Shown: positions 15,063-64,000 of the stretch, in pieces
Numbering within the stretch: the first letter of the stretch is position 1
How the letters are laid out: every line of letters starts with the position of its first letter
Origin: an uncultured Clostridia bacterium
GTDB lineage: Bacteria; Bacillota; Clostridia; Christensenellales; Pumilibacteraceae
Assembly (NCBI GenBank): GCA_934229275.1
Contig: CAKQDN010000001.1
Location: 11,596 to 75,595 of the forward strand
Length of the DNA stretch: 64,000 bases
Reading direction: 5' to 3'
Notes under the pieces: generated by a model
What the model saw: the letters and a program-made list of their open reading frames with translations, nothing else
Told to the model about the DNA's origin: nothing
Database searches by the model: none
Translations under genes and position numbers: made by a program

Positions 15063-15143
15063 GTTGTATGGTGGGCGTACTTTAAAGCCTCTCCCTCCGG
15101 GAGAGGTGCGGCGATAGCCGATGGAGAGGGTAATTTAAATTTT

Positions 15144-15173
15144 CGGACAGCCAACGGACGCCTGTCCCTACAA
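15144..15173 (-). repeat. REP element, variant 1 (5'-TTGTAGGGACAGGCGTCCGTTGGCTGTCCG-3' on the minus strand)
   Basis: 30/30 identical to the copy at 56873-56902; GTAG head plus GGACAG/CTGTCC arms. Confidence 0.8.
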
Positions 15174-15740
15174 AGACGCACAAACTTTGGTGCGTTGAAA
15201 TTGACTTCTTTAAAGCCTCCTTTGCTTTGCAAGGGAGGTGGCTTCGAGCATAGCGAGAAGACGGTGGGATTATTATCGGGAGGGGGAACCCCTCCCCTAC
15301 ATAGTAAACCAAACCGAGTGCGATTAAACAAGCGAAATTTACATACCAACCCTCTTCGTCGCGGTAAACCGCGCCACCTCTCCCGAAGGGCGAGGCTTTA
15401 AATGCGGTCAAAGCAGAGGCACCAAACCTTGACAAAATCGCACACCTGTCTTAAAGTTTTTTTGCCTGTTTTTTAAATAAGCAAGGTTTTTAGCCATGCA
15501 TAAGCAGAGGCACCAAACCTTGACAAAATCGCACACCTGTCTTAAAGTTTTTTTGCATACTTTTTTTCAAAAAAAGTATGGTTTCAAAAAAATTAAAAAA
15601 GAGGGGAGAGGTTGTCCTCGTCCCCTGCAATTGGAATTCGGCAAAAAATATTAAATTTCACGGGCGTGCGGTTTGCACGAGCCTGTCGCTTCCGTTACGC
15701 GTACTCGGGAGCGTAAATTTTCTGCTTTTGCGACTGTGAG

Positions 15741-51376: not shown

Positions 51377-51406
51377 GCGGACAGTCGGGGACGCCTGTCC
51401 CTACAG
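51377..51406 (-). repeat. REP element, variant 2 (minus-strand 5'-CTGTAGGGACAGGCGTCCCCGACTGTCCGC-3'), 67 nt upstream of the RAYT gene
   Basis: GTAG head plus GGACAG/CTGTCC arms; 29/30 identical to the 57123-57152 copy. Confidence 0.8.
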
Positions 51407-51472
51407 TAATAAGTCGAAAGTACGTCTACTTAACATCTCAATGCATGAGAGAATAACGTAAAACGATAAGAA

Positions 51473-51997
51473 ATGAATGACATAATCGAAAACAGAGTGT
51501 TGTCGCAAAGAGTTCCGACACGTTTACGATACTATGACTACAATAACGCAGGCGCGTATTTTGTAACAATATGCACAATGGGCAAAAAGTGCATATTGTC
51601 GAAGATTGTAGGGACAGGCGTCCTCGACTGTCCGCAACCGGAATTGACCGAATACGGGAAAATCGCCGAAAAATACATTAAATCGATGGGCGAGTTTTAT
51701 AAACATATTTCTATCGACGGATACGTAATAATGCCCAATCACATTCATATCATGCTTGTTATAAAAGAGTGCGAAACAATTAAAAACGACAGTCGCTCGA
51801 ACAGCGCGTATTCGCGATTTGTTTCTACGTTCAAACGTTTTTGTAATAAAGAGTACGGTAGAAACATTTGGCAGGCGCGTTCCAACGACCACATTATTCG
51901 TAACGAGCATGACTACGAAAAACACATGAAGTATATTTACGAGAATCCCTTGAAGTGGACATCCGACGAGATGTATATAAACGAGGTGCAATTGTGA
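51473..51997 (+). CDS. REP-associated tyrosine transposase (RAYT; IS200/IS605-like Y1 HuH transposase family)
   Basis: YFVTICT N-terminal motif, HuH motif MPNHIHIML, C-terminal catalytic-Tyr region NIWQARSNDHIIRNEHDYEKHMKYIYENPLKW closely resembling E. coli YafM-type RAYTs. Surrounded by cognate GTAG-headed REPs. Confidence 0.8.
   Translation: MNDIIENRVLSQRVPTRLRYYDYNNAGAYFVTICTMGKKCILSKIVGTGVLDCPQPELTEYGKIAEKYIKSMGEFYKHISIDGYVIMPNHIHIMLVIKECETIKNDSRSNSAYSRFVSTFKRFCNKEYGRNIWQARSNDHIIRNEHDYEKHMKYIYENPLKWTSDEMYINEVQL
51606..51635 (+). repeat. REP element, variant 2, in-frame inside the RAYT ORF (encodes IVGTGVLDCPQ)
   Basis: 5'-TTGTAGGGACAGGCGTCCTCGACTGTCCGC-3' differs by 1 nt from the intergenic copies at 51377 and 57123 (reverse complement). 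Confidence 0.75.
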
Positions 51998-53198: not shown

Positions 53199-55031
53199 AT
53201 GAAAGAAAACATAAGAAACGTCGCGATAATAGCGCACGTCGACCACGGCAAAACCACTCTCGTAAACGAACTTTTAAAACAGGGCGGAGCGTTCCGTTCC
53301 AATCAGGTGGTAAACGACAGAGTTATGGACTCCAACGACCTCGAAAGAGAAAGAGGAATAACCATTCTCGCGAAAAACACGTCGGTCAAATACGGCAACT
53401 ATAAAATCAACATCGTCGATACTCCCGGTCACGCCGATTTCGGAGGAGAAGTCGAGCGTATTCTCAAAATGGTAAACGGCGTCGTTCTGCTCGTAGACGC
53501 GTTCGAAGGTACCATGCCGCAAACCCGCTTCGTTTTGCAGAAAGCGCTCGAACTCAATCACCCGGTAGTCGTCGTGGTCAATAAAATCGACCGTCCCGAC
53601 GCTCGTCCCAAGGAAGTCGTGGACGAAGTGCTGGAACTTCTCATGGAACTGGGTGCAAGCGACGAGCAACTGGACAGCCCCATCATCTATTGTAGCGCGA
53701 GAAAGGGTATCGCGTCCGAACGCGCCGACGAGGAAGGAACCAACCTCATTCCGCTTTTCGAGGCGATCGTGCGCCATATCCCGGCTCCTACGGGCGACGA
53801 AAACGCTCCCGTGCAGATGCTTATAAGCGCGCTCGACTATTCCGATTACGTCGGCTCTATCGGTATCGGCAGAATAGAACGCGGCACGCTTACGCAGAAT
53901 CAGCAGGTTGTGCTTACCAACTTCCATCACGACAATCAGATTAAAACCAAAGTCACCAACATATATCAGTTCGAAGGACTGAACCGCGTGGCGGTCGAAA
54001 GCGCGTCCGCCGGCGACATCGTGTGCGTCAGCGGTCTCGAAGGCGTTAAAATCGGCGATACGCTGTGCGATCCGATAGACGTCACGCCCATCGAATTCCC
54101 CAAGATAAGCGAACCCAGCGTGGAAATGACCTTCCTCGTAAACGACAGCCCGTTCGCAGGGAAAGAGGGCAAATTCGTCACTTCCCGTCACCTTCGCGCG
54201 CGCCTTTATAAAGAAGCCGTCCGCGACGTCAGCATACGCGTAAACGACGGCGAAACAAGCGAGTCGTTCAAAGTGTGCGGAAGAGGCGAAATGCACCTGT
54301 CTATCCTTATCGAAAACATGAGAAGAGAGGGCTACGAATTCCAGGTTTCGCAGCCGCGCGTTCTTTATAAAGAAATAGACGGCGTTCTGTGCGAACCTAT
54401 CGACATCATGGTCGCCGACGTACCCGAGGACTGCGTGGGAGCGGTCATCACCAAAATGGGTATGCGTGCCGGCGAACTTAAATCCATGTCGCCTGCAGGA
54501 AACCGCATGAAACTCGAATTCTCCGTTCCGTCGCGCGGACTGTTCGGCTATAAGTCCGAATTCCTCACCGATACGAGAGGAGAAGGCATCATGAGTTCGG
54601 TGTTCGACAAGTACGACAAATACCGCGGCGAAATCACGAGAAGAACGACCGGCTCGCTTATCGCGTTCGAAACGGGCGAAGCGGTCGTGTACGGACTTTA
54701 TAACGCTCAGGAGCGCGGCGATCTGTTTATCGGAGCCGGCACTATGGTTTACGAAGGCATGATAGTCGGATCCAACCCCAAGGGCGGCGACATAGCGGTT
54801 AACGTGTGCAAAACCAAGCACCTTTCCAATACCCGTGCTTCCGGCAGCGACGACGCTCTGCGCCTGACGCCCCCGGTTATAATGTCGCTCGAAAAATCGC
54901 TCGAATACGTCGGCGACGACGAATATCTCGAAATCACGCCCAAGTCCATTCGCCTCAGAAAAATCATTCTCAACACCGAACTGCGCTTGAAGGCGGAAGC
55001 GAAAAGGAAAAAAGCAGCCGACAATCAGTAA
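53199..55031 (+). CDS. typA: translational GTPase TypA/BipA
   Basis: IRNVAIIAHVDHGKTTL G1 motif, DTPGHADF, NKID; EF-G-like domain order without domain IV; 610 aa. Confidence 0.9.
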   Translation: MKENIRNVAIIAHVDHGKTTLVNELLKQGGAFRSNQVVNDRVMDSNDLERERGITILAKNTSVKYGNYKINIVDTPGHADFGGEVERILKMVNGVVLLVDAFEGTMPQTRFVLQKALELNHPVVVVVNKIDRPDARPKEVVDEVLELLMELGASDEQLDSPIIYCSARKGIASERADEEGTNLIPLFEAIVRHIPAPTGDENAPVQMLISALDYSDYVGSIGIGRIERGTLTQNQQVVLTNFHHDNQIKTKVTNIYQFEGLNRVAVESASAGDIVCVSGLEGVKIGDTLCDPIDVTPIEFPKISEPSVEMTFLVNDSPFAGKEGKFVTSRHLRARLYKEAVRDVSIRVNDGETSESFKVCGRGEMHLSILIENMRREGYEFQVSQPRVLYKEIDGVLCEPIDIMVADVPEDCVGAVITKMGMRAGELKSMSPAGNRMKLEFSVPSRGLFGYKSEFLTDTRGEGIMSSVFDKYDKYRGEITRRTTGSLIAFETGEAVVYGLYNAQERGDLFIGAGTMVYEGMIVGSNPKGGDIAVNVCKTKHLSNTRASGSDDALRLTPPVIMSLEKSLEYVGDDEYLEITPKSIRLRKIILNTELRLKAEAKRKKAADNQ

Positions 55032-55124
55032 TCGGCGGCAATTATAGTTTATAAGAAAAGCGTTGTTTTTAACGCCGAAAACAGGCTCGGTCAACGCTTA
55101 TACAGGTAAAAAAAGGAGGTAATT

Positions 55125-56687
55125 ATGCCGTTCGACGCAAAATCGACCGCTCACCCCAACTTGAAAGCGAGAGTGCTTCCGCACAACGACGAAGCAGAGC
55201 AGGCAGTGCTCGGCTGCGTCATGATAGACGAAAACGCTCCGATAACCATTCTCAACGAACTCAAACCCGAGGACTTCTATCAGAATGCGCACAAACTGAT
55301 TTTTCAGGCGATGCAAAACATTTCGCTTGCGGACAAGCCCGTGGACATCGTCACGCTCGTTCAGGAACTGGAAACCATGGGTTGCATGGACAAGACGGGC
55401 GGCATCACATATCTGACTGAATTGAGCAATTTCGTGCCCAGCGCCGACAACTACCGCCACTATCTCGAAATAGTCAAGAAAAACTCGCTTCTGCGCCAAC
55501 TCATTTCGGTAAGTTCCCGGATCGCCGACAACGCGTTCGAGGGCGACCCCGAGGATAAAGCGCTCGAAAAAGCCGAAAGCGAGATATATTCGCTGTCCGA
55601 AAAACGCGATAAAAGTTCGCTCGTGGACATAAAACAGGCGGTAGGCGAGGCGGTGGAGCAGATGGAATACAAGTTCGCTCACCCCAAAGAGGAAGTCAAC
55701 GTCCCCATCAAATTCCGCCAACTCAACTATTTCCTCAACGGTTTTCACCGCACCGACCTCGTGCTTATCGCAGCACGCCCCGGTCAGGGTAAAACCAGTA
55801 TCGGTATGAATTTTATCACCGACGCCGCGCTCGATACGAGCAGAAAAACCGAGGCAGGCGCGACCGATCCGTATAAATGCGCCGTGTTCTCTCTGGAAAT
55901 GTCGGCGGTGCAACTTGCAAACCGTATGCTTGCTTCGGTTGCGAAAGTGGATATGGGCAAGGCTCTTCGCGGCAATCTCGATCCCGACGAATGGCGTCGA
56001 ATCTCCGAAGCGCGCAAACGCCTGTCGCAAAGCAAAATCTACATCGACGACTCGTCGCTTACAACGCCTGTCGAAATACTGTCTAAATGCCGCCGTCTCA
56101 AAAGGGAAATCGGCGGATTGGATCTCGTCATGGTGGACTATCTGCAACTTATGTCGTCGGGTAAAAAGACCGACAGTCGTCAGCAGGAAGTCGCGGACAT
56201 CACCCGTACCATGAAAATCGCGGCGAAAGAACTGGACGTTCCCATTCTGCTCCTGTCGCAGATGTCCCGTGAAGTGGAAAAGCGCAACACCAAGGAGCCG
56301 CAGATGTCCGACCTTCGCGAGTCCGGTGCAATCGAGCAGGACGCGGACATTATCATGTTCATCTACCGCCCTCACAAGGAAACCGACCCCGTTTCCGACG
56401 AGGAAAAGAGCAAAGTGGAAATACATATCGCTAAGCACAGAAACGGCTCGACCGGTAAAGTTCCGCTGCGCTGGAAGGGCAGTTTCGTTTCGTTCGAGGA
56501 CATCGACACCAATCCCGAAACGGAAAGACGTGCCGAAAGCGTTCCCGAAAACAAGGGCAATTTCATCATGGGCGACGATGACGTTCCGCCCGCGCCCGAA
56601 GAGGATATGCGTGCGAAAATGAACATAGGTTCGGGCAGCATGGAAGAAATTCTCAAAGTTTCCGAAAACGACGACGATATAATTTAG
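55125..56687 (+). CDS. dnaB: replicative DNA helicase (DnaB family) with about 70-aa acidic C-terminal extension
   Basis: Walker A RPGQGKTSIGMNF, Walker B LVMVDYLQLM, RecA-like C-domain; AAGGAGG RBS. Tail ...DDDVPPAPEEDMRAKMNIGSGSMEEILKVSENDDDII. Confidence 0.9.
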   Translation: MPFDAKSTAHPNLKARVLPHNDEAEQAVLGCVMIDENAPITILNELKPEDFYQNAHKLIFQAMQNISLADKPVDIVTLVQELETMGCMDKTGGITYLTELSNFVPSADNYRHYLEIVKKNSLLRQLISVSSRIADNAFEGDPEDKALEKAESEIYSLSEKRDKSSLVDIKQAVGEAVEQMEYKFAHPKEEVNVPIKFRQLNYFLNGFHRTDLVLIAARPGQGKTSIGMNFITDAALDTSRKTEAGATDPYKCAVFSLEMSAVQLANRMLASVAKVDMGKALRGNLDPDEWRRISEARKRLSQSKIYIDDSSLTTPVEILSKCRRLKREIGGLDLVMVDYLQLMSSGKKTDSRQQEVADITRTMKIAAKELDVPILLLSQMSREVEKRNTKEPQMSDLRESGAIEQDADIIMFIYRPHKETDPVSDEEKSKVEIHIAKHRNGSTGKVPLRWKGSFVSFEDIDTNPETERRAESVPENKGNFIMGDDDVPPAPEEDMRAKMNIGSGSMEEILKVSENDDDII

Positions 56688-56872
56688 TTATTTTTAAGGC
56701 GCAAATAAGCCGAAAAGAATGTAAAGGTTTTTTTGATTTAAACGATTTATATCTAAAGTAATTGTAAAGAAGCAGTAAACAGCAAAACAAGGTTGGCTTT
56801 TCCGTTTTAACATCGCGGATTGACCAGCCTTGTTTTTTTATTGTTGTAAGGTGAGCACACATTTGACTTCTT

Positions 56873-56902
56873 TTGTAGGGACAGGCGTCCGTTGGCTGTC
56901 CG
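56873..56902 (+). repeat. REP element, variant 1
   Basis: 5'-TTGTAGGGACAGGCGTCCGTTGGCTGTCCG-3'; identical to the reverse complement of 15144-15173. Confidence 0.8.
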
Positions 56903-56908
56903 TTTAAC

Positions 56909-57011
56909 GGGAGGGTGGAGTCCGGGTCGCAATTATAAATTGCTTCCCGCTTTGGCTACGAATAGTCCACCGGACTATTCGCTTAACGCGTCGCGCCCCG
57001 CCCCTACAAAG
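56909..57011 (-). repeat. about 100-nt structured element (GTAGGGG-headed; contains perfect palindrome GAATAGTCC-ACC-GGACTATTC), copy 1
   Basis: About 95% identical to the reverse complement of 59692-59786. Ends (CCCCGCCCCTACAAAGG) resemble REP heads. Confidence 0.75.
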
Positions 57012-57122
57012 GCGCACAAGCCGAGTGCGCTGAATCAGCCGACTTCTTTAAAGCCTCTCACTCCGGGAGAGGTGGCACGGCGCAAGCCGTGACGGAGAGG
57101 GTAATAATAGGCGCGGACAGTC

Positions 57123-57152
57123 GGGGACGCCTGTCCCTACAAATCGGATGAT
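57123..57152 (-). repeat. REP element, variant 2
   Basis: Reverse complement TTGTAGGGACAGGCGTCCCCGACTGTCCGC. Confidence 0.8.
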
Positions 57153-57346
57153 TTCGTTTTGTCCTGTGCGTTTATCCTTATATCGTAGGGGAGGGGTCTC
57201 CCCTCCCGTTTACTTTAAAATCATGACTTCTTTAAAGCCTCTCACTCCGGGAGAGGTGGCACGGCGCAAGCCGTGACGGAGAGGGTAATTGCTTGAAAAA
57301 AATACCGTTCGTACGCCCTCTTTTCACCCACCTCGACCGCAAAAAA

Positions 57347-57402
57347 TCGTCCGAAAATCGTCCGAAAATTGTCCGAAAATCATCCGAAAATCACCCGAAA
57401 AA
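57347..57402 (+). repeat. five tandem 11-bp repeats (NNTCCGAAAAT), iteron-like
   Basis: TCCGAAAAT at 57350, 57361, 57372, 57383 and CCCGAAAAA at 57394: exact 11-bp phasing. Confidence 0.75.
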
Positions 57403-57476
57403 CGCGGCGGCGCGCTCGATTTTTTAAGATCCGGAAAAATACCGAAAATCGGCAAAGTCGCATAAATAAACATTAT

Positions 57477-57578
57477 TCTACTGAAAGACTAAGCGTAAAC
57501 TGCGGGTAACTAAGCGTAAACTGCGGGTCATCCGCACTTTACGCTTAGTCTTTTTCCTTGATTTTTCAGTAAAAATCG
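57477..57578. repeat. 21-bp direct repeat x2 (ACTAAGCGTAAACTGCGGGT) nested in an inverted repeat (TACTGAAAGACTAAGCGTAAA / TTTACGCTTAGTC...TTTCAGTA)
   Basis: Direct copies at 57488-57508 and 57509-57529; inverted arm at 57538-57575; about 80 nt upstream of the lipoprotein gene. Confidence 0.7.
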
Positions 57579-57655
57579 TGTTAAAATTTTAATGTCGAAC
57601 GGAAATCGCGCGAACGTTTGGCAAAAAAATACATCCGAAAAAGGAGAATTAAAAA

Positions 57656-58102
57656 ATGAAAAAAGTAAAAAGTCTGAAAGTTATTGCAGCCGTGCTGTGT
57701 ATGGTTGCCGTGTGCGTCGCTGCTTTGTCGTTCGGCGCGTGTGCAAAAACAAAAGACGACGGTGCTATTGATGCAGGAGTTATACAGCCCGATGATGGAC
57801 GTCCCGATTTTAATAAAATCTACGAAGACCTCGGCTCGCCGTATTGTTGCACCGTCGCAAAAGACGGAAGTTATCTTTCGGTTGATACCAACTGGCTGGA
57901 CAGAGACGATTATTTCGATTCGACCGCTTACAGCATATTATGCCAGGTTGTAGAAAAATTGGGTTTGCCCGAATCTCTGACAGAAGAAATGAATCACACG
58001 AGAGCAATCGACGGCAGGCTGAGTGAAAAGTATACTTATGTAACCGTTTCGTGGTCGTATCATCCGGATAAAGGGCTCGAAGCAACTTTCAAACTTAATT
58101 AA
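57656..58102 (+). CDS. hypothetical lipoprotein
   Basis: Signal peptide plus lipobox (SFGAC); 148 aa; AAGGAGAA RBS. Confidence 0.55.
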   Translation: MKKVKSLKVIAAVLCMVAVCVAALSFGACAKTKDDGAIDAGVIQPDDGRPDFNKIYEDLGSPYCCTVAKDGSYLSVDTNWLDRDDYFDSTAYSILCQVVEKLGLPESLTEEMNHTRAIDGRLSEKYTYVTVSWSYHPDKGLEATFKLN

Positions 58103-58133: not shown

Positions 58134-59471
58134 ATGATTTGTAACAAATGTGGGGCGGAGAACGAGGAAGGAACCGTTTTCTGCGGAACGTGCGGCGCTC
58201 GTCTTGACGGGAAAATCAAGTGTCCGTCGTGCGGAAAGTACATCGACCCTAGCAACGTTTATTGCCCCGAGTGCGGAACGCGAACGGACGGCAAAAAGAC
58301 CTGCCCGAAGTGCGGCTCGGTGGTCGAGGGTAAGTTTTGTCCGAAGTGCGGTACCGCCGTGGATAAAGCCGGGAGAATAGAGAACGCTAAAACGAAAAAA
58401 ATACTGAGCATAGTGTCTAATGCGCTTTTTCTTTGCGCAGTGGCAGTATCATTGTTGTTTATATTCTTAATCGGATGGGAAAGCAGTTCTTCAACCAAGT
58501 TTACATCGAACAGCGAATCGGCGAATATTTTCTATTTGTTCGGGAAGAAAAACGAATATTTCGATTCATCGTATAATTGGCTCCCGATAACGCTGTACAT
58601 AATTTCGTTATTGCTTGTTATTGGGTTTGCGACGATAGCGGCAATTAAATCCGTTCCTTTGTTTAAAGGTGAAAATAAGGGTGAGATAGTCACGTACTCT
58701 TTTGTGCCGGTAATCGTCTATTTTGCATTCTGTCTTATAGTCAAAATGTTTGTCGGAATGAGCAATAATGGTGATATTGAAGGAATAGCGACGGAAGCAA
58801 GTGTGAAACTTAATCCGGCGACAGTGGCAGGATTGATTATTGCGATATTACTATTTATCGCAGGATTGATATTGCATATTGTGGCAAATAACGAGAATGA
58901 AAACAAAAAGAGATATATGACGAACGCAATAAACGCATGTATCGGAGTCGGTATTGTGTTTGTGCTTATATTATTTATCGGTAGCACCGGAATAGATTTC
59001 AGGACTGATCTTCGTGAAAGGTCTAGTATTTATTCATCATCGTATAATGAGTCTTACATTGAAGGAAGGAACTCAATAGTACGTGTGGCTGCTGCGCTTG
59101 AGAAAAAAAGCCTGGGCTTGACTGCTATGTTGTTTGGCATTGCAGCCGTAGCGTTGGCGGTTTATATCGCGATCGTGGCTTTGAAAAAAACGAATAGCAA
59201 AACCTCGATGTTGAGAGTTATTCTTTCGTCGTTGGAAGTTGCGCTGTCGATTGTTTTTATGATTTTTACTTTAGTACTATCCGGTAAATATGAAAAATCT
59301 TTAAACCCAGACCCCACCTCGTATGTTATATGTACAGGTTCGGCATCTGCGCCGATGTTTGTCGGAGTTATCGTTTTTGCGGTTTTATTGTTGGCTTCGT
59401 CGATAGTTGCTTGCGTTTTGGAAAAGAAAACCGCTAATGCAGCAGGGGCAGATTATAATTACGACATGTAA
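58134..59471 (+). CDS. zinc-ribbon-domain polytopic membrane protein
   Basis: N-terminal 4x CxxCG...CxxCG zinc ribbons (residues 4-75) followed by about 8 TM helices; AAGGAGAA RBS; no further functional assignment. Confidence 0.6.
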   Translation: MICNKCGAENEEGTVFCGTCGARLDGKIKCPSCGKYIDPSNVYCPECGTRTDGKKTCPKCGSVVEGKFCPKCGTAVDKAGRIENAKTKKILSIVSNALFLCAVAVSLLFIFLIGWESSSSTKFTSNSESANIFYLFGKKNEYFDSSYNWLPITLYIISLLLVIGFATIAAIKSVPLFKGENKGEIVTYSFVPVIVYFAFCLIVKMFVGMSNNGDIEGIATEASVKLNPATVAGLIIAILLFIAGLILHIVANNENENKKRYMTNAINACIGVGIVFVLILFIGSTGIDFRTDLRERSSIYSSSYNESYIEGRNSIVRVAAALEKKSLGLTAMLFGIAAVALAVYIAIVALKKTNSKTSMLRVILSSLEVALSIVFMIFTLVLSGKYEKSLNPDPTSYVICTGSASAPMFVGVIVFAVLLLASSIVACVLEKKTANAAGADYNYDM

Positions 59472-60016
59472 ATTATTCAGACACACCACCACCCGTTTTA
59501 AGGCACTCTTGCCCGATGGATAAAATCGGATAGGGGTGCCTGTTTTTTTAAAGTGGGACATGGATGGTCGTCGTCGGAGTTGATCGCGTATCGGAGTGGT
59601 TAAATAACCCTCTTCGTCGGCTGCCGCCGCCATCTCTCCCAGTGGGCGAGGCTTTAAAGAGGACGATTTTAAAGCACCAAGGTTTGAGCGACTTTGTAGG
59701 GGAGGGGCGCGACGCGTTAAGCGAATAGTCCGGTGGACTATTCGTAGCCAAAGCGGGAAGCAATTTATAATTGCGACCCGGACTCCCCCCCCTCCCGAAA
59801 ATAATCCCACCGTCTTCTCGCTATGCTCGAAGCCACCTCCCTTGCATAGCAAAGGAGGCTTTAAAGAGGTCGATTATTTTAAAGTAAGCGGATAGAAGGT
59901 AGCGCCCTGTCCCTACAAAAAAAGTCAAAAGTGCGTTCTCCCAACTTCCCCTAACTCAAAAGTTTTTTGCCTACTTTTTTTCAAAAAAGTACGGTGCTTT
60001 TTTACAAAAAAGTAAG
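59472..60016. repeat. BIME-like mosaic cluster 3 (terminator hairpin, inverted family-A hairpins, about 100-nt element copy 2, truncated REP, family-D palindrome)
   Basis: Hairpin plus T-run 59492-59548, family A (inverted) 59600-59665 and 59833-59880, long element 59692-59786, REP half CCTGTCCCTACAA at 59906-59918, family D at 59953-59994. Confidence 0.8.
59692..59786 (+). repeat. about 100-nt structured element, copy 2 (inverted relative to copy 1)
   Basis: 5'-TTGTAGGGGAGGGGCGCGACGCGTTAAGCGAATAGTCCGGTGGACTATTCG...GGACTCCCCCCCCTCCCG-3'. Confidence 0.75.
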
Positions 60017-60822: not shown

Positions 60823-60897
60823 TAGTGTATCATTGCTTGGTGTGAAGTCGGACAGGCTGTCGCGCAGGAGCAAAAAAATCGAAAAGGAGAAAAATAT

Positions 60898-63800
60898 GAA
60901 AAGAAGATTTGTTGTTCTGATCTGCGTGCTTTGCGCCGTGATGATGGCATGTCCGTTTTTCGCTGCCTGTGACGGCACGCCCGGTCAGACGGACGACGAA
61001 AAGACGTACAGCGTCGTGTTCGATCAAACCGAGATGACGCTTGTCGTCGGCGAAACGAAAACGGTCGGCGTTACGTTCAGCGGCGGAGACACGGTTGAAA
61101 TCAAAATTCAGCCGGAAGACGTCGCGTCTTATGCCGACGGTAAGATCACCGCTCTCAAAGCGGGCAACGCAACCGTAACGGCTAAAATCGGCGACAAGAG
61201 CGCAACCATGAAACTCGTCGTCGAGGCTCGGAAATATTCCGTCACGATCGACGGAGTCAAGAGCGAGGTCGATGCCGGAAGTTATCTCGATAAGCCCTCC
61301 GACCCCAAAAAGGACGCAACTACGGAACATGAGTATGTGTTCGACGGCTGGTATATCGCCGGCACCGGCACTAAATGGGACTTCGCGAAAGATACCGTCA
61401 AAAGCGATCTCGTCCTCGAAGCGAAATTCACCGAAAATCCGAGAATGTATTGGATTGCGTTCGGCAGCGAATTCGTTAAAGGTTACTACGGTCAACTTCT
61501 CGAAAAACCCGAAGATCCCACGAAGCCCAACGAAGGCGAAAATTCTTATGTGTTCGACGGCTGGTATATCGTCGGTACCGACACTAAGTGGGACTTCGAA
61601 AAAGACACCGTAACCGGAAAAGTCAATCTCGAAGCACGCTTTACCACGGTAGTCGCACAGTACACTTATACCTACGAAATCAAACTTAAAAAAGAAAACG
61701 TCATGGGCGCGGCGTACGAACTCGGCGTTATAGACTATTCCGCAGTCACGGCTACGCTTGTAAAAGGAGATCAGACCACCGCTCTCGAAGTTAAAGACGG
61801 AAAGGTGGACGTCGTTGCTACACGCGGTCAGTACGACGTTGTATTTGCTTATAAAGGTCAGTCGATAAAAAAATCGCTTTATTTGCAGGCAAACGGCAAT
61901 GCCGATATCGAATTCGAGAACGAAAAACCCGTCCTCGGCGGTAAAGCAGGCGAACTTCCTTCGTTTAACGGCGGATGGACTCGCAGCGACGACGGCAATA
62001 CTCTCACCGTAACCGGAACGTCGTATGTGTATATCCAGAACGCACAGCCCACCGAAACCGTTTATTACGAAGCAAACGTTTCTTTCACTCAGGGCGTCGG
62101 CAGCATGACCGGTTTTATGCCGGCAGCCGAACATAAATCGCTCGAAGGCAACGACGGCGGCAAAAAACTCTTGTTCTCGTACAGCGCCGGAAACAAGATT
62201 TACTATCAGGAAGTCGCAGGCTGGTCGGGCGCCGGAATTACCACAATGACCTCGCTGGCTTCGGCTCAGTATCCTCTCGATAAATTTAAGATGGGTATCG
62301 CGCGTCGCGGAAACGAATATTTCATTTTCATGAACGACAAACCCATGGGTTATTACAAATCCGATTATATCGAAGGCGCGGGAGATTTCGGTTTTGCTCA
62401 GACGAACGGAAGCACGAAAATTACCTACACCGACGTTAAATACACCACAAAAGCAGACGTCGTCGAACAGATTATAGAAAAGAATAAAGCAAATGCTTAC
62501 CTCGGAGGTAAATTCAATTACCCGGACGGCAAAAAATACGATTCGTTCGCTTCCAGATGGACTATCACGAGCGCAAACGGCGGTTACCTTAACCCGACCA
62601 CTTACGTTTATGCAAGCGAGCAGGTCGGAAACGTCTACTATCAGGAAGTTAACTTCTCTGCAGGCGCAGGTTGGGTCGGACTTCTCGTCAACACGCTCGA
62701 CGGTCAGCCTTGCGATAACAAAGGCTGGTACGGCTACGGCGTGCTTTACGGATCTCTTTATCTGCACAAATTCAGCAGTTGGTACGAAGGCGATCCGCTC
62801 GGCGACGTAGGCACAAACGGCAAGGCGTTCAAAATGGGCGTCGCGCGTATTTACGACAGATATTTCGTTTATATCAACGATAAATTTGTTCGCTCCGACG
62901 TCGTAACCGCTTATTCCACCGCGAATAAAGCCAAGGCGTTGCCTGCCGGCAATATGTCCGGATTCGGATTGTTCCGCGGCAGCAACGAAGAAAACCTTAA
63001 TCAGAGAATAGATTTCAGCAATTATTACTACACCACCGATCTCGAAGAAGTAAGCAAAAAGGTGGGAAGTGCCGCTATCGCAACGTTCGACTCGACGGTC
63101 ACCATGACTCAGAACGGTAAAAAGGTTAATAGCGGCGACGTACTCTATGCCGGAATTCCCGTCGAAATGGGCTTCAACGCTCCCGAAGGAAAGGCAATCA
63201 AGAGTTATAAACTCACGCGCGACGGAAAAGACGTCGATTTGAAAATAGACGGAACGTCTTTGTACTTCACCCCCGAAGTAAGCGGCAAATACGTCGCGAC
63301 GGCGGAATTCACCGAAGCAGGCGAAGCAACGCTCGATCTCACGGTTAAACCCGTCGAACGCAAAGCAGGTGATAAGACGTATTCGCTGTATGACATGAAC
63401 GTCGATTACAGCAAAGTACATGTATCCGTTCTCAATTTCACCACTGCAAAGGAAACCACGTTCTATATGAGCGGCGCGAACATGACGCAGAAGGTGACGA
63501 GCGGATATTGCAAGATTACCGTAACGTACAAAGATAACAGTTACGTTAAGTACCTCACGATCGAACCCGGCACGACTTTCGAATATCTGACCTATGTATC
63601 CGAAGTATATCTCGGCGGTAAGATCAACAACATCACCGGCGAGCATCTGTCTTTCGACAAAGCACCCGTCGGCTCGACTTCCGGAAACGGATGGGCGCTC
63701 GTAAACGGCAGACGCGATACGGTTCGCATCACCGGTTACACCTACGCATATCAGAACGGCATCATCGGCAATAAGTATTACGTCGAAGGTACTTTCGACA

Positions 63801-64000
63801 GCACCACGCGACTCGACATCGGCAATAATTTCGCAGGACTTTTGGTAAGCCACGGCGAAAAAGACTTAAGCGGCAACGGCGACAAGAAATTCGAAGTCAC
63901 AATACTCGGCGGAGGAATTTTCGCTCTGTATGTGCCTACGCAGTGGAGCCCCGAAAATATCTTCTCGGTAGGTAACTATGCGGACGTTGTGGGCGTTTAC
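60898..64000 (+). CDS. large cell-surface lipoprotein with Big_2 and tandem Listeria-Bacteroides-repeat (Flg_new) domains; 3'-partial at window end
   Basis: AAAAGGAGAAAAA RBS; signal peptide plus lipobox (FFAAC); Ig-like Big_2 segment (TLVVGETKTVGV...KLVV); two Flg_new repeats (YVFDGWYIAGTGTKWDFAKDTV, YVFDGWYIVGTDTKWDFEKDTV); beta-rich downstream domains; ORF open to window end. Confidence 0.8.

Follow-up and report, generated by a model that had tools for sequence, protein, structure and literature searches.

An 11-bp tandem repeat with phased A-tracts in a strain-variable chromosomal spacer downstream of dnaB in an uncultured Clostridia bacterium

The window analysed in this study is a stretch of 64,000 nucleotides from one contig of an uncultured Clostridia bacterium. 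A 970-bp non-coding spacer, reaching from the end of dnaB to a lipoprotein gene, contains five direct repeats with a period of 11 bp, and the question is whether such an array is a site for a dedicated protein or a tandem repeat with at most an architectural effect. The preliminary description of this DNA had compared the array with plasmid iterons and with partition-protein binding sites; its geometry, with the copies phased along the helix, was borne out, while the functional labels of iteron and partition site were not. The elements of the spacer and the genes on its two sides are as follows.

55125-56687: dnaB, gene of the full-length replicative helicase (DnaB and DnaB_C domains)
56784-56836: terminator-like hairpin 3' of dnaB
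56864-57290: cluster of REP-like dispersed repeats, upstream of the array
57337-57347, plus strand: decayed leftmost copy CCGCAAAAAAT, holding an A6 tract (57341-57346); its core has one insertion or mismatch, and it lies 3 bp off the register of the main array
57348-57402, plus strand: main array of five head-to-tail 11-bp units
57403-57425: GC-rich mini-palindrome CGCGGCGGCGCG followed by T6 (-6.6 kcal/mol on the plus strand, -7.9 kcal/mol on the minus strand)
57431-57448, plus strand: two decayed right copies (CCGGAAAAATA and CCGAAAA, starting at 57431 and 57442), spaced 11 bp from each other
57483-57553, plus strand: very stable hairpin followed by a U-run (-39.4 kcal/mol, z = -8.07)
57558-57587, plus strand: sigma-70-type promoter match TTGATT-18-TAAAAT with TG, the sole good plus-strand match in the spacer
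57656-58102: lipoprotein gene
58134-59471: gene of a double-zinc-ribbon membrane protein

The main array consists of CGTCCGAAAAT twice, followed by TGTCCGAAAAT, CATCCGAAAAT and CACCCGAAAAA, and the units start in register at 57348, 57359, 57370, 57381 and 57392. Together with its flanks, the stretch 57337-57451 is laid out as CCGCAAAAAAT / CGTCCGAAAAT / CGTCCGAAAAT / TGTCCGAAAAT / CATCCGAAAAT / CACCCGAAAAA, CGCGGCGGCGCGCTCGATTTTTTAAGAT, CCGGAAAAATA / CCGAAAATCG. The exact 11-bp period claimed earlier was confirmed by reading the units directly and by Tandem Repeats Finder, which reported the array as 57343-57401 (period 11, 5.4 copies, 91% matches, 0 indels) with a score of 90, the highest among the 42 rows obtained for the window. 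With this period the A-tracts, and any protein bound to them, come to lie on nearly one face of the helix, as had been proposed, and the position between the repeat cluster and the lipoprotein gene was also given correctly. The A6 tract described as preceding the array is present and is part of the decayed sixth copy. The preliminary description had missed all three decayed flank copies (57337, 57431 and 57442), of which the right-hand two are found 27 bp right of the array and +3 bp out of phase with it. Per dinucleotide-shuffled window, 0.02 occurrences of three CCGAAAA cores at 11-bp spacing were expected, and three overlapping exact matches were observed, all belonging to this array, the only place in the window with such three-core matches.

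The region had been described as free of open reading frames, and in practice this holds: mechanical reading frames of 44-58 aa overlap the array, and none of them is a called gene in a collection of 15 billion proteins or has similar predicted proteins. The reading frames of the array were used as bait for small contigs in an exact look-up and in a six-frame concatenated protein search, and nothing matched.

The CCGAAAA core is invariant in all five units, and every difference falls in unit positions 1-3 and 11. The two units at the left are identical and those to the right carry 1, 1 and 3 differences in turn. Five cells differ: three, representing two distinct changes, are CG>TG or CG>CA transitions, one is a T>C transition and one a T>A transversion. 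With three or four independent events, the chance of the differences avoiding the core is about 0.02 if a single 3-bp block is named beforehand and about 0.2 if any block counts. The sparing of the core could reflect selection, for example for a protein site, and is weak evidence for it; the test has little force because there are just three or four independent changes.

The array is located on a bacterial, Firmicutes-like chromosome in a context of housekeeping genes. Upstream are the genes of PepF, two unknown proteins, BipA, SbcCD, a DnaD/DnaB_2-type protein and a DnaI-like protein, and further downstream, behind the lipoprotein and zinc-ribbon genes, are an ArsR-family regulator, a 64-aa reading frame and a large protein with a SASA domain (the domain was found in the identical contig L001). 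Long stop-free antisense reading frames of up to 1007 aa shadow real genes in the window, for example 53274-55094 opposite BipA. Another lies on the minus strand at 60830-63853, opposite the gene of the SASA-domain protein; since the identical contig has a plus-strand gene called at this place, the antisense frame is probably no real gene.

Such surroundings bear directly on the idea that the repeats are iterons of plasmid type, or form a partition centromere as parC does in plasmid R1, and mark the replication origin or the segregation site of an integrated or autonomous element. In its favour, five 11-bp direct repeats equal one half of R1 parC in size and number, parC is also strongly curved (PMC2241845), and the island behind dnaB that contains the array varies between strains. 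However, no gene of Rep, ParA/ParM, ParB/ParR or a relaxase was present within about 17 kb upstream and 6 kb downstream (among the annotated products between 39.9 and 64 kb), the array has no counterpart that would complete a pair of repeat sets around a promoter, and the neighbours are chromosomal housekeeping genes together with those of the lipoprotein, the zinc-ribbon protein, the ArsR regulator and the SASA-domain protein. A BLAST search of 57291-57660 against 72,556 plasmid and 50,697 phage records gave no similarity. The earlier statement that DnaA boxes are lacking nearby proved right: at one mismatch or fewer, none occurs between 45577 and 58357, so that none lies within about 950 bp of the array and the nearest is at 58358, and the window as a whole holds 10 versus 7.4 expected. 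The GC skew takes no turn in the window. A chromosomal origin, oriC, was discarded as a candidate on the same two grounds, no DnaA-box cluster and no skew turn. We consider the iteron or centromere label, which the preliminary description had offered, as already largely refuted and as having next to no chance of being right.

On the side of the lipoprotein gene, the predicted promoter at 57558-57587 starts 156 bp downstream of the array and would serve the lipoprotein and zinc-ribbon genes; between promoter and lipoprotein gene lies a leader with a strong Shine-Dalgarno sequence. Six rows, the window and five contigs, were aligned over this region. From 57566, where TCAG is common to all six rows, to the start codon the sequence is nearly invariant in 6/6 rows, while the -35 side (57558-57565) is covered by 4/6 rows with one difference. 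The encoded lipoproteins are just 77-78% identical in three of the six rows despite the near-invariant promoter and leader; the conservation has a modest margin over the nucleotide identity of about 92% for the whole operon. A 31-mer of the invariant promoter had 0 matches in the JGI metagenomes, a collection from which the species is absent. An exact TGTCGAA heptamer occurs at 57592-57598, just after the -10, and resembles a Spo0A box. A reading of the array itself as Spo0A boxes was rejected: its units resemble TGTCGAA with an extra C, and the extra base breaks the heptamer. CodY boxes, integron attC/attI sites and DGR repeats were likewise rejected for missing partner genes or symmetry.

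Between the array and this promoter stands the hairpin at 57483-57553, which is composed of three 20-nt units ACTAAGCGTAAACTGCGGGT, two direct with a period of 21 and one inverted. Conservation of this hairpin was seen in L133 and L134 and extends to strains with a 77% identical lipoprotein. The hairpin could be a terminator or insulator, or an operator, and separates the array from the lipoprotein promoter. The mini-palindrome at 57403-57425 is unconvincing as a terminator, with a weak hairpin on both strands that folds no better than shuffled sequences (z = 0.76 on the plus strand and -0.13 on the minus strand). No promoter-like pair of -35 and -10 sites adjoins the array on either strand, and no acceptable plus-strand promoter was found upstream of it by a promoter scan together with inspection of 57180-57345. 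On the minus strand, a promoter-like site at 57499-57472 scores 9/12, and 2 such sites were found versus 1.3 expected by chance.

This arrangement has to be weighed for the main rival of the tandem-repeat reading, namely that the array serves as operator or enhancer for a sequence-specific protein which reads direct repeats one helical turn apart. The target would be the lipoprotein/zinc-ribbon operon, reached from afar, or some unseen transcript. Candidate proteins are a winged-helix response regulator of OmpR/PhoB type and a ribbon-helix-helix protein. Five units with an exact 11-bp period, an invariant 7-bp core and a variable 4-bp spacer are what speaks for an operator, an architecture shared with ParR iterons (PMC2241845) and with PhoB/PhoP-type boxes, and an extra ATCCGAAAA at 57634-57642, in the invariant lipoprotein 5' leader beside the ribosome-binding site, points the same way. 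The nearest promoter, however, is 156 bp away behind a hairpin of -39 kcal/mol, and none adjoins. Among the genes annotated from 39.9 kb to the end of the window there is no response regulator, the sole regulator gene in the neighbourhood is of ArsR type, and an AlbA_2 homologue is absent from the window. The ArsR family binds inverted and not direct repeats. Moreover, the rest of the window shows no enrichment of the single 9-mer (50 matches at one mismatch versus 37.7 ± 6.3), and the array is absent from all readable relatives. We regard an operator as unlikely, though a serious alternative.

The same elements could be put together differently, with the array acting as RNA: as an unstructured A-rich repeat in a small transcript ending at the 57483-57553 hairpin or, on the minus strand, as UUUUCGGA repeats complementary to AUCCGAAAA beside the lipoprotein ribosome-binding site. 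In either form, the RNA might sequester an RNA-binding protein or base-pair with the leader. The hairpin with its U-run does resemble an intrinsic terminator for an upstream transcript, the leader has the same 9-mer beside the Shine-Dalgarno sequence, and the minus-strand site at 57499-57472 is weakly promoter-like; against this, the plus strand offers no acceptable promoter upstream of the array and the minus-strand site is at chance level. Array RNA from the two strands gave z = +1.72 and +0.67, no more structure than shuffled sequences. The Rfam search returned no family matches, with sub-threshold chance matches on the neighbouring hairpin only. Because the array is unstructured relative to shuffles and has no Rfam match, a role as RNA is unlikely, and taking both variants together we give it a very small chance.

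Relatives of the locus were collected using exact-protein look-ups with the lipoprotein, DnaB, the zinc-ribbon protein and the homologues P0002, P0003 and P0005; members of the DnaB cluster (P0015, P0018, P0019 and P0020) were also looked up. Many contigs of this species and of congeners were recovered. Samples with the window-type allele include ERZ28613879/SAMEA4765669, SRR29134144, SRR25448497, SRR29134110, SRR29133773, SRR25448311 and SRR29980925, and the lipoprotein variants of 77-78% identity are represented by SRR29133795, SRR29133858 and SRR29133773. Contigs of the same allele coming from the dnaB side end in the REP cluster, at or before 57102, and those that enter through the lipoprotein gene have their first base within the big hairpin or shortly behind it (57498-57566), so that none spans the array. 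The breaks would be an effect of dispersed repeats and of a strong hairpin on short-read assemblies. That the array might be an assembly artefact of the source contig was considered in this connection. In ERZ28613879, assembled independently from the same strain, the sequence stops at 57095 and is taken up again at 57531, leaving 57096-57530 without support from another contig. Yet the units have diverged in order and are not perfect copies, the flanks join unique sequence, and the REP cluster and the very stable hairpin explain the breaks; we hold an artefact to be extremely improbable.

The REP-like families of the cluster at 56864-57290 are also found at 15070-15410, 51380-51410, 51600-51630 and 59610-59658, and in relatives. 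Within these families TTTGTAGGGACAGGCGTCC occurs five times, and a 65-nt unit has two exact copies, at 57041 and 57225, and similar copies both in other parts of the window and in the genomes of relatives. Hairpins of the form GGGAGGGG..CCCCTCCC are present in the clusters, and the short-read contigs of the species break in them. A 174-aa reading frame (51473-51997, plus strand) contains a REP copy in its coding region and has only a sub-threshold match to Y1_Tnp (IS200-like, E = 0.098); it may encode a REP-associated, RAYT-like transposase. A link of the array to the REP family was rejected: TGTCCGAAAAT also ends the REP copy at 15138-15148, but other REP copies continue as CTGTCCGC..., and the coincidence is probably due to chance.

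After dnaB, the gene order differs between strains. Three contigs (L004, L007 and L011) encode a DnaB identical to that of the window, and their DNA diverges from 56706, with an LRR_5 lipoprotein gene in place of the one described here. The congeners L136-L143, whose dnaB DNA is about 86% identical, also have an LRR_5 lipoprotein gene after dnaB, and L303, with a 520-aa DnaB, shows a third arrangement. Neither the array nor the 57483-57553 hairpin is present in any of these contigs, which have different DNA after 56705, and in L305, with a distant lipoprotein homologue, there is no tandem repeat upstream. The sequences part 18 bp beyond the stop codon of dnaB. From 56706 to at least 60800 the window is variable, with three unrelated arrangements behind the same or an at least 90% identical DnaB: the lipoprotein, zinc-ribbon and ArsR genes of the window; the LRR_5 lipoprotein gene, behind which some relatives have a prophage terminase; and the third type. 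By these sequence comparisons the locus is plastic, with at least three alternative alleles, and the array is part of one of them. As a hotspot where strains swap surface-protein genes after dnaB, the locus may be of interest for population genomics in this organism of gut or rumen type.

The curvature of the DNA was predicted using three dinucleotide wedge models with literature parameters, and the ranks are approximate. Among about 64,000 positions, the array ranked 1 (AA-wedge), 89 (De Santis) and 1953 (Bolshoy-Trifonov) at 84 bp, and 1, 67 and 1940, respectively, at 30 bp; two of the three models predict it to be close to the top of the window in curvature, and the prediction depends on the model. 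Its five AAAA(T/A) tracts are spaced at 11.0 bp and fall under the definition of phased A-tracts (at least three tracts of 4-6 bp every 10-11 bp). Relative to 10.5 bp, a period of 11 bp is slightly over-winding and gives a non-planar bend.

Arrays with the same core, three copies of CCGAAAA spaced at 11 bp, were sought in a set of genomes that represents each prokaryotic species once. At least 119 loci were obtained, from Firmicutes, Bacteroidota, Proteobacteria, Planctomycetota, Cyanobacteria, Actinobacteria and archaea; among the matches listed, none comes from the source genome or is related to the window, and most have no long reading frame open. A metagenome search for three copies of TCCGAAAAT-N2 gave 11 loci, none similar to the window; several of the metagenome matches resemble eukaryotic satellites and one adjoins GGGTTA telomere repeats. 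In L105, a MAG of Lachnospiraceae UBA7188, seven phased GAAAAT units occupy 860-940 on the minus strand, and two of them (TCACCCGAAAA and TCGTCCGAAAA) are identical to units of the window; this array sits between two convergent genes, so that no promoter is expected there. Species-level MAGs of Acutalibacteraceae/Clostridia (L014, L065, L075, L098 and L122) carry a composite of TTACCAC, (TTACCGAAAA)n and two or three units of GGTGGTAAAAA type, with an 11-bp period throughout and the last unit cut short; the composite of L065, the sole locus examined, is intergenic and adjoins one end of a tRNA cluster. As a rough control for the period, arrays of three cores were counted in viral contigs: those with periods of 8, 10, 11, 12, 13 and 14 bp numbered 3, 43, 27, 59, 3 and 14, respectively, counts that are not independent, many period-10 matches coming from one metagenome. 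Twelve is divisible by three, and giant-virus contigs (GVMAG names) account for many of the period-12 matches. That 10 and 11 are the commonest among the periods not divisible by three fits a helical-phase preference of A-tract units.

A group of MAGs from Bacilli/Erysipelotrichaceae differs in having the array ahead of a promoter. The loci (L018, L019, L024, L037, L045, L049, L063, L076, L095, L099 and L110) contain three or four units (GTGA-, GCGA- or CCGG-CCGAAAA) which end 2 or 13 nt before a TTGATA or TTGCAT -35. The start of an orthologous reading frame follows in nine of them, eight of which were extracted (at least 8 MAGs); the stretch of L063 ends before a gene, and L110 has none in the stretch read. 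L018, the sole member checked for domains, encodes SLFN_AlbA_2 and HATPase_c_4 (RecG-C-like). The upstream array of the AlbA_2/HATPase_c_4 gene in one Bacilli MAG is (GTGACCGAAAA)3. The array position is kept while the spacer bases change, and this pattern in the sequences argues for a function as an UP-like element or operator in these Bacilli. We found no description of this conserved promoter-upstream array.

For the array of the window, the Bacilli group adds to the case for an operator in one respect: same-core arrays 2 or 13 nt upstream of a -35 in at least 8 MAGs suggest that the motif class can be regulatory. Carried further, the CCGAAAA core would be read by a direct-repeat-binding protein, and the array would belong to a wider class of N4-CCGAAAA 11-bp operators of Firmicutes that includes the SLFN_AlbA_2/HATPase_c_4 arrays; it would then control the strain-variable surface lipoprotein/zinc-ribbon operon from a distance. 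We consider this extension improbable, a step below the operator reading as such. If the core is a protein site, the finding would gain weight, and the fixed promoter position in many uncultured Bacilli hints at an unstudied regulator-operator pair.

On balance, we lean, by a little more than an even chance, towards the array being an 11-bp minisatellite that arose by slippage and statically bends the DNA through its phased A-tracts, with no role or at most an architectural one. Its copies are arranged head to tail and decay towards the ends, and a decay gradient with degenerate flank copies is the birth-and-decay pattern expected of slippage arrays. By this account, slipped-strand duplication of an 11-bp unit would have produced the array in a fast-changing non-coding spacer, and point mutation would then have decayed the copies grown in this way. 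One A4-5(T) tract per unit, at about one helical turn, would yield five phased tracts and intrinsically curved DNA. The array probably lacks a sequence-specific partner, and its role would be passive at most, as a static bend or as a stretch favoured by nucleoid proteins of no sequence specificity, ahead of the lipoprotein/zinc-ribbon operon. No role or a passive one is the most likely because no promoter adjoins the array and the hairpin or terminator cuts it off from the lipoprotein promoter. If the minisatellite reading is true, the array matters little, apart from the caution that copies phased at exactly 11 bp are not iterons on that ground alone.

Among known systems, typical iterons measure 17-22 bp, and the 11-bp unit is short beside them. 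What the array shares with iterons is direct repeats in helical phase; a Rep gene or replicon context, and an AT-rich element with DnaA boxes, are lacking. In parC of plasmid R1 (ParMRC), two sets of five 11-bp iterons flank the par promoter, and each iteron takes a ParR dimer (PMC2241845). The array is like one such set of five 11-bp direct repeats in predicted curved DNA; unlike parC, it is a single cluster with two decayed copies on a chromosome, with no promoter between and no parM/parR.

The boxes of the OmpR/PhoB family are direct repeats of 6-7 bp with a 10-11 bp period which overlap or abut the -35. With them the array has in common a conserved 7-bp core and a variable 4-bp spacer, head to tail at 11 bp, whereas it has no adjoining -35 and no response regulator among its annotated neighbours.

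Curved DNA and A-tracts upstream of bacterial promoters, UP-like elements, were reportedly treated by Aiyar, Gourse and Ross in 1998, and the A-tracts upstream of Clostridium perfringens plc are an example of phased A-tract curved DNA. The known activating A-tracts abut the -35 hexamer, at about -40 to -90. The array resembles these in its five A4-5(T) tracts, one per helical turn, and in its position upstream of an operon. In contrast to them, it stops 156 bp short of the -35, from which a strong hairpin separates it, and its units share a GC-containing CCG core which curvature does not need. A-tracts directly upstream of the -35, the mark of an UP element, are present in the Bacilli arrays 2 or 13 nt before TTGATA and not here.

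In Helicobacter pylori sabA, an upstream repeat tract is reported to tune promoter output through DNA architecture (PMC4081817). The array is like this tract and other bacterial short tandem repeats (VNTRs, simple-sequence contingency repeats) in having non-coding head-to-tail copies upstream of a surface-protein operon at a strain-variable locus, with a divergence gradient typical of slippage. It is unlike the tract in that its 11-bp unit makes a full turn per copy, so a change in copy number would not rotate upstream sites relative to the promoter. Taken as a whole, the feature looks like a kind already known, a short tandem repeat of phased A-tract DNA.
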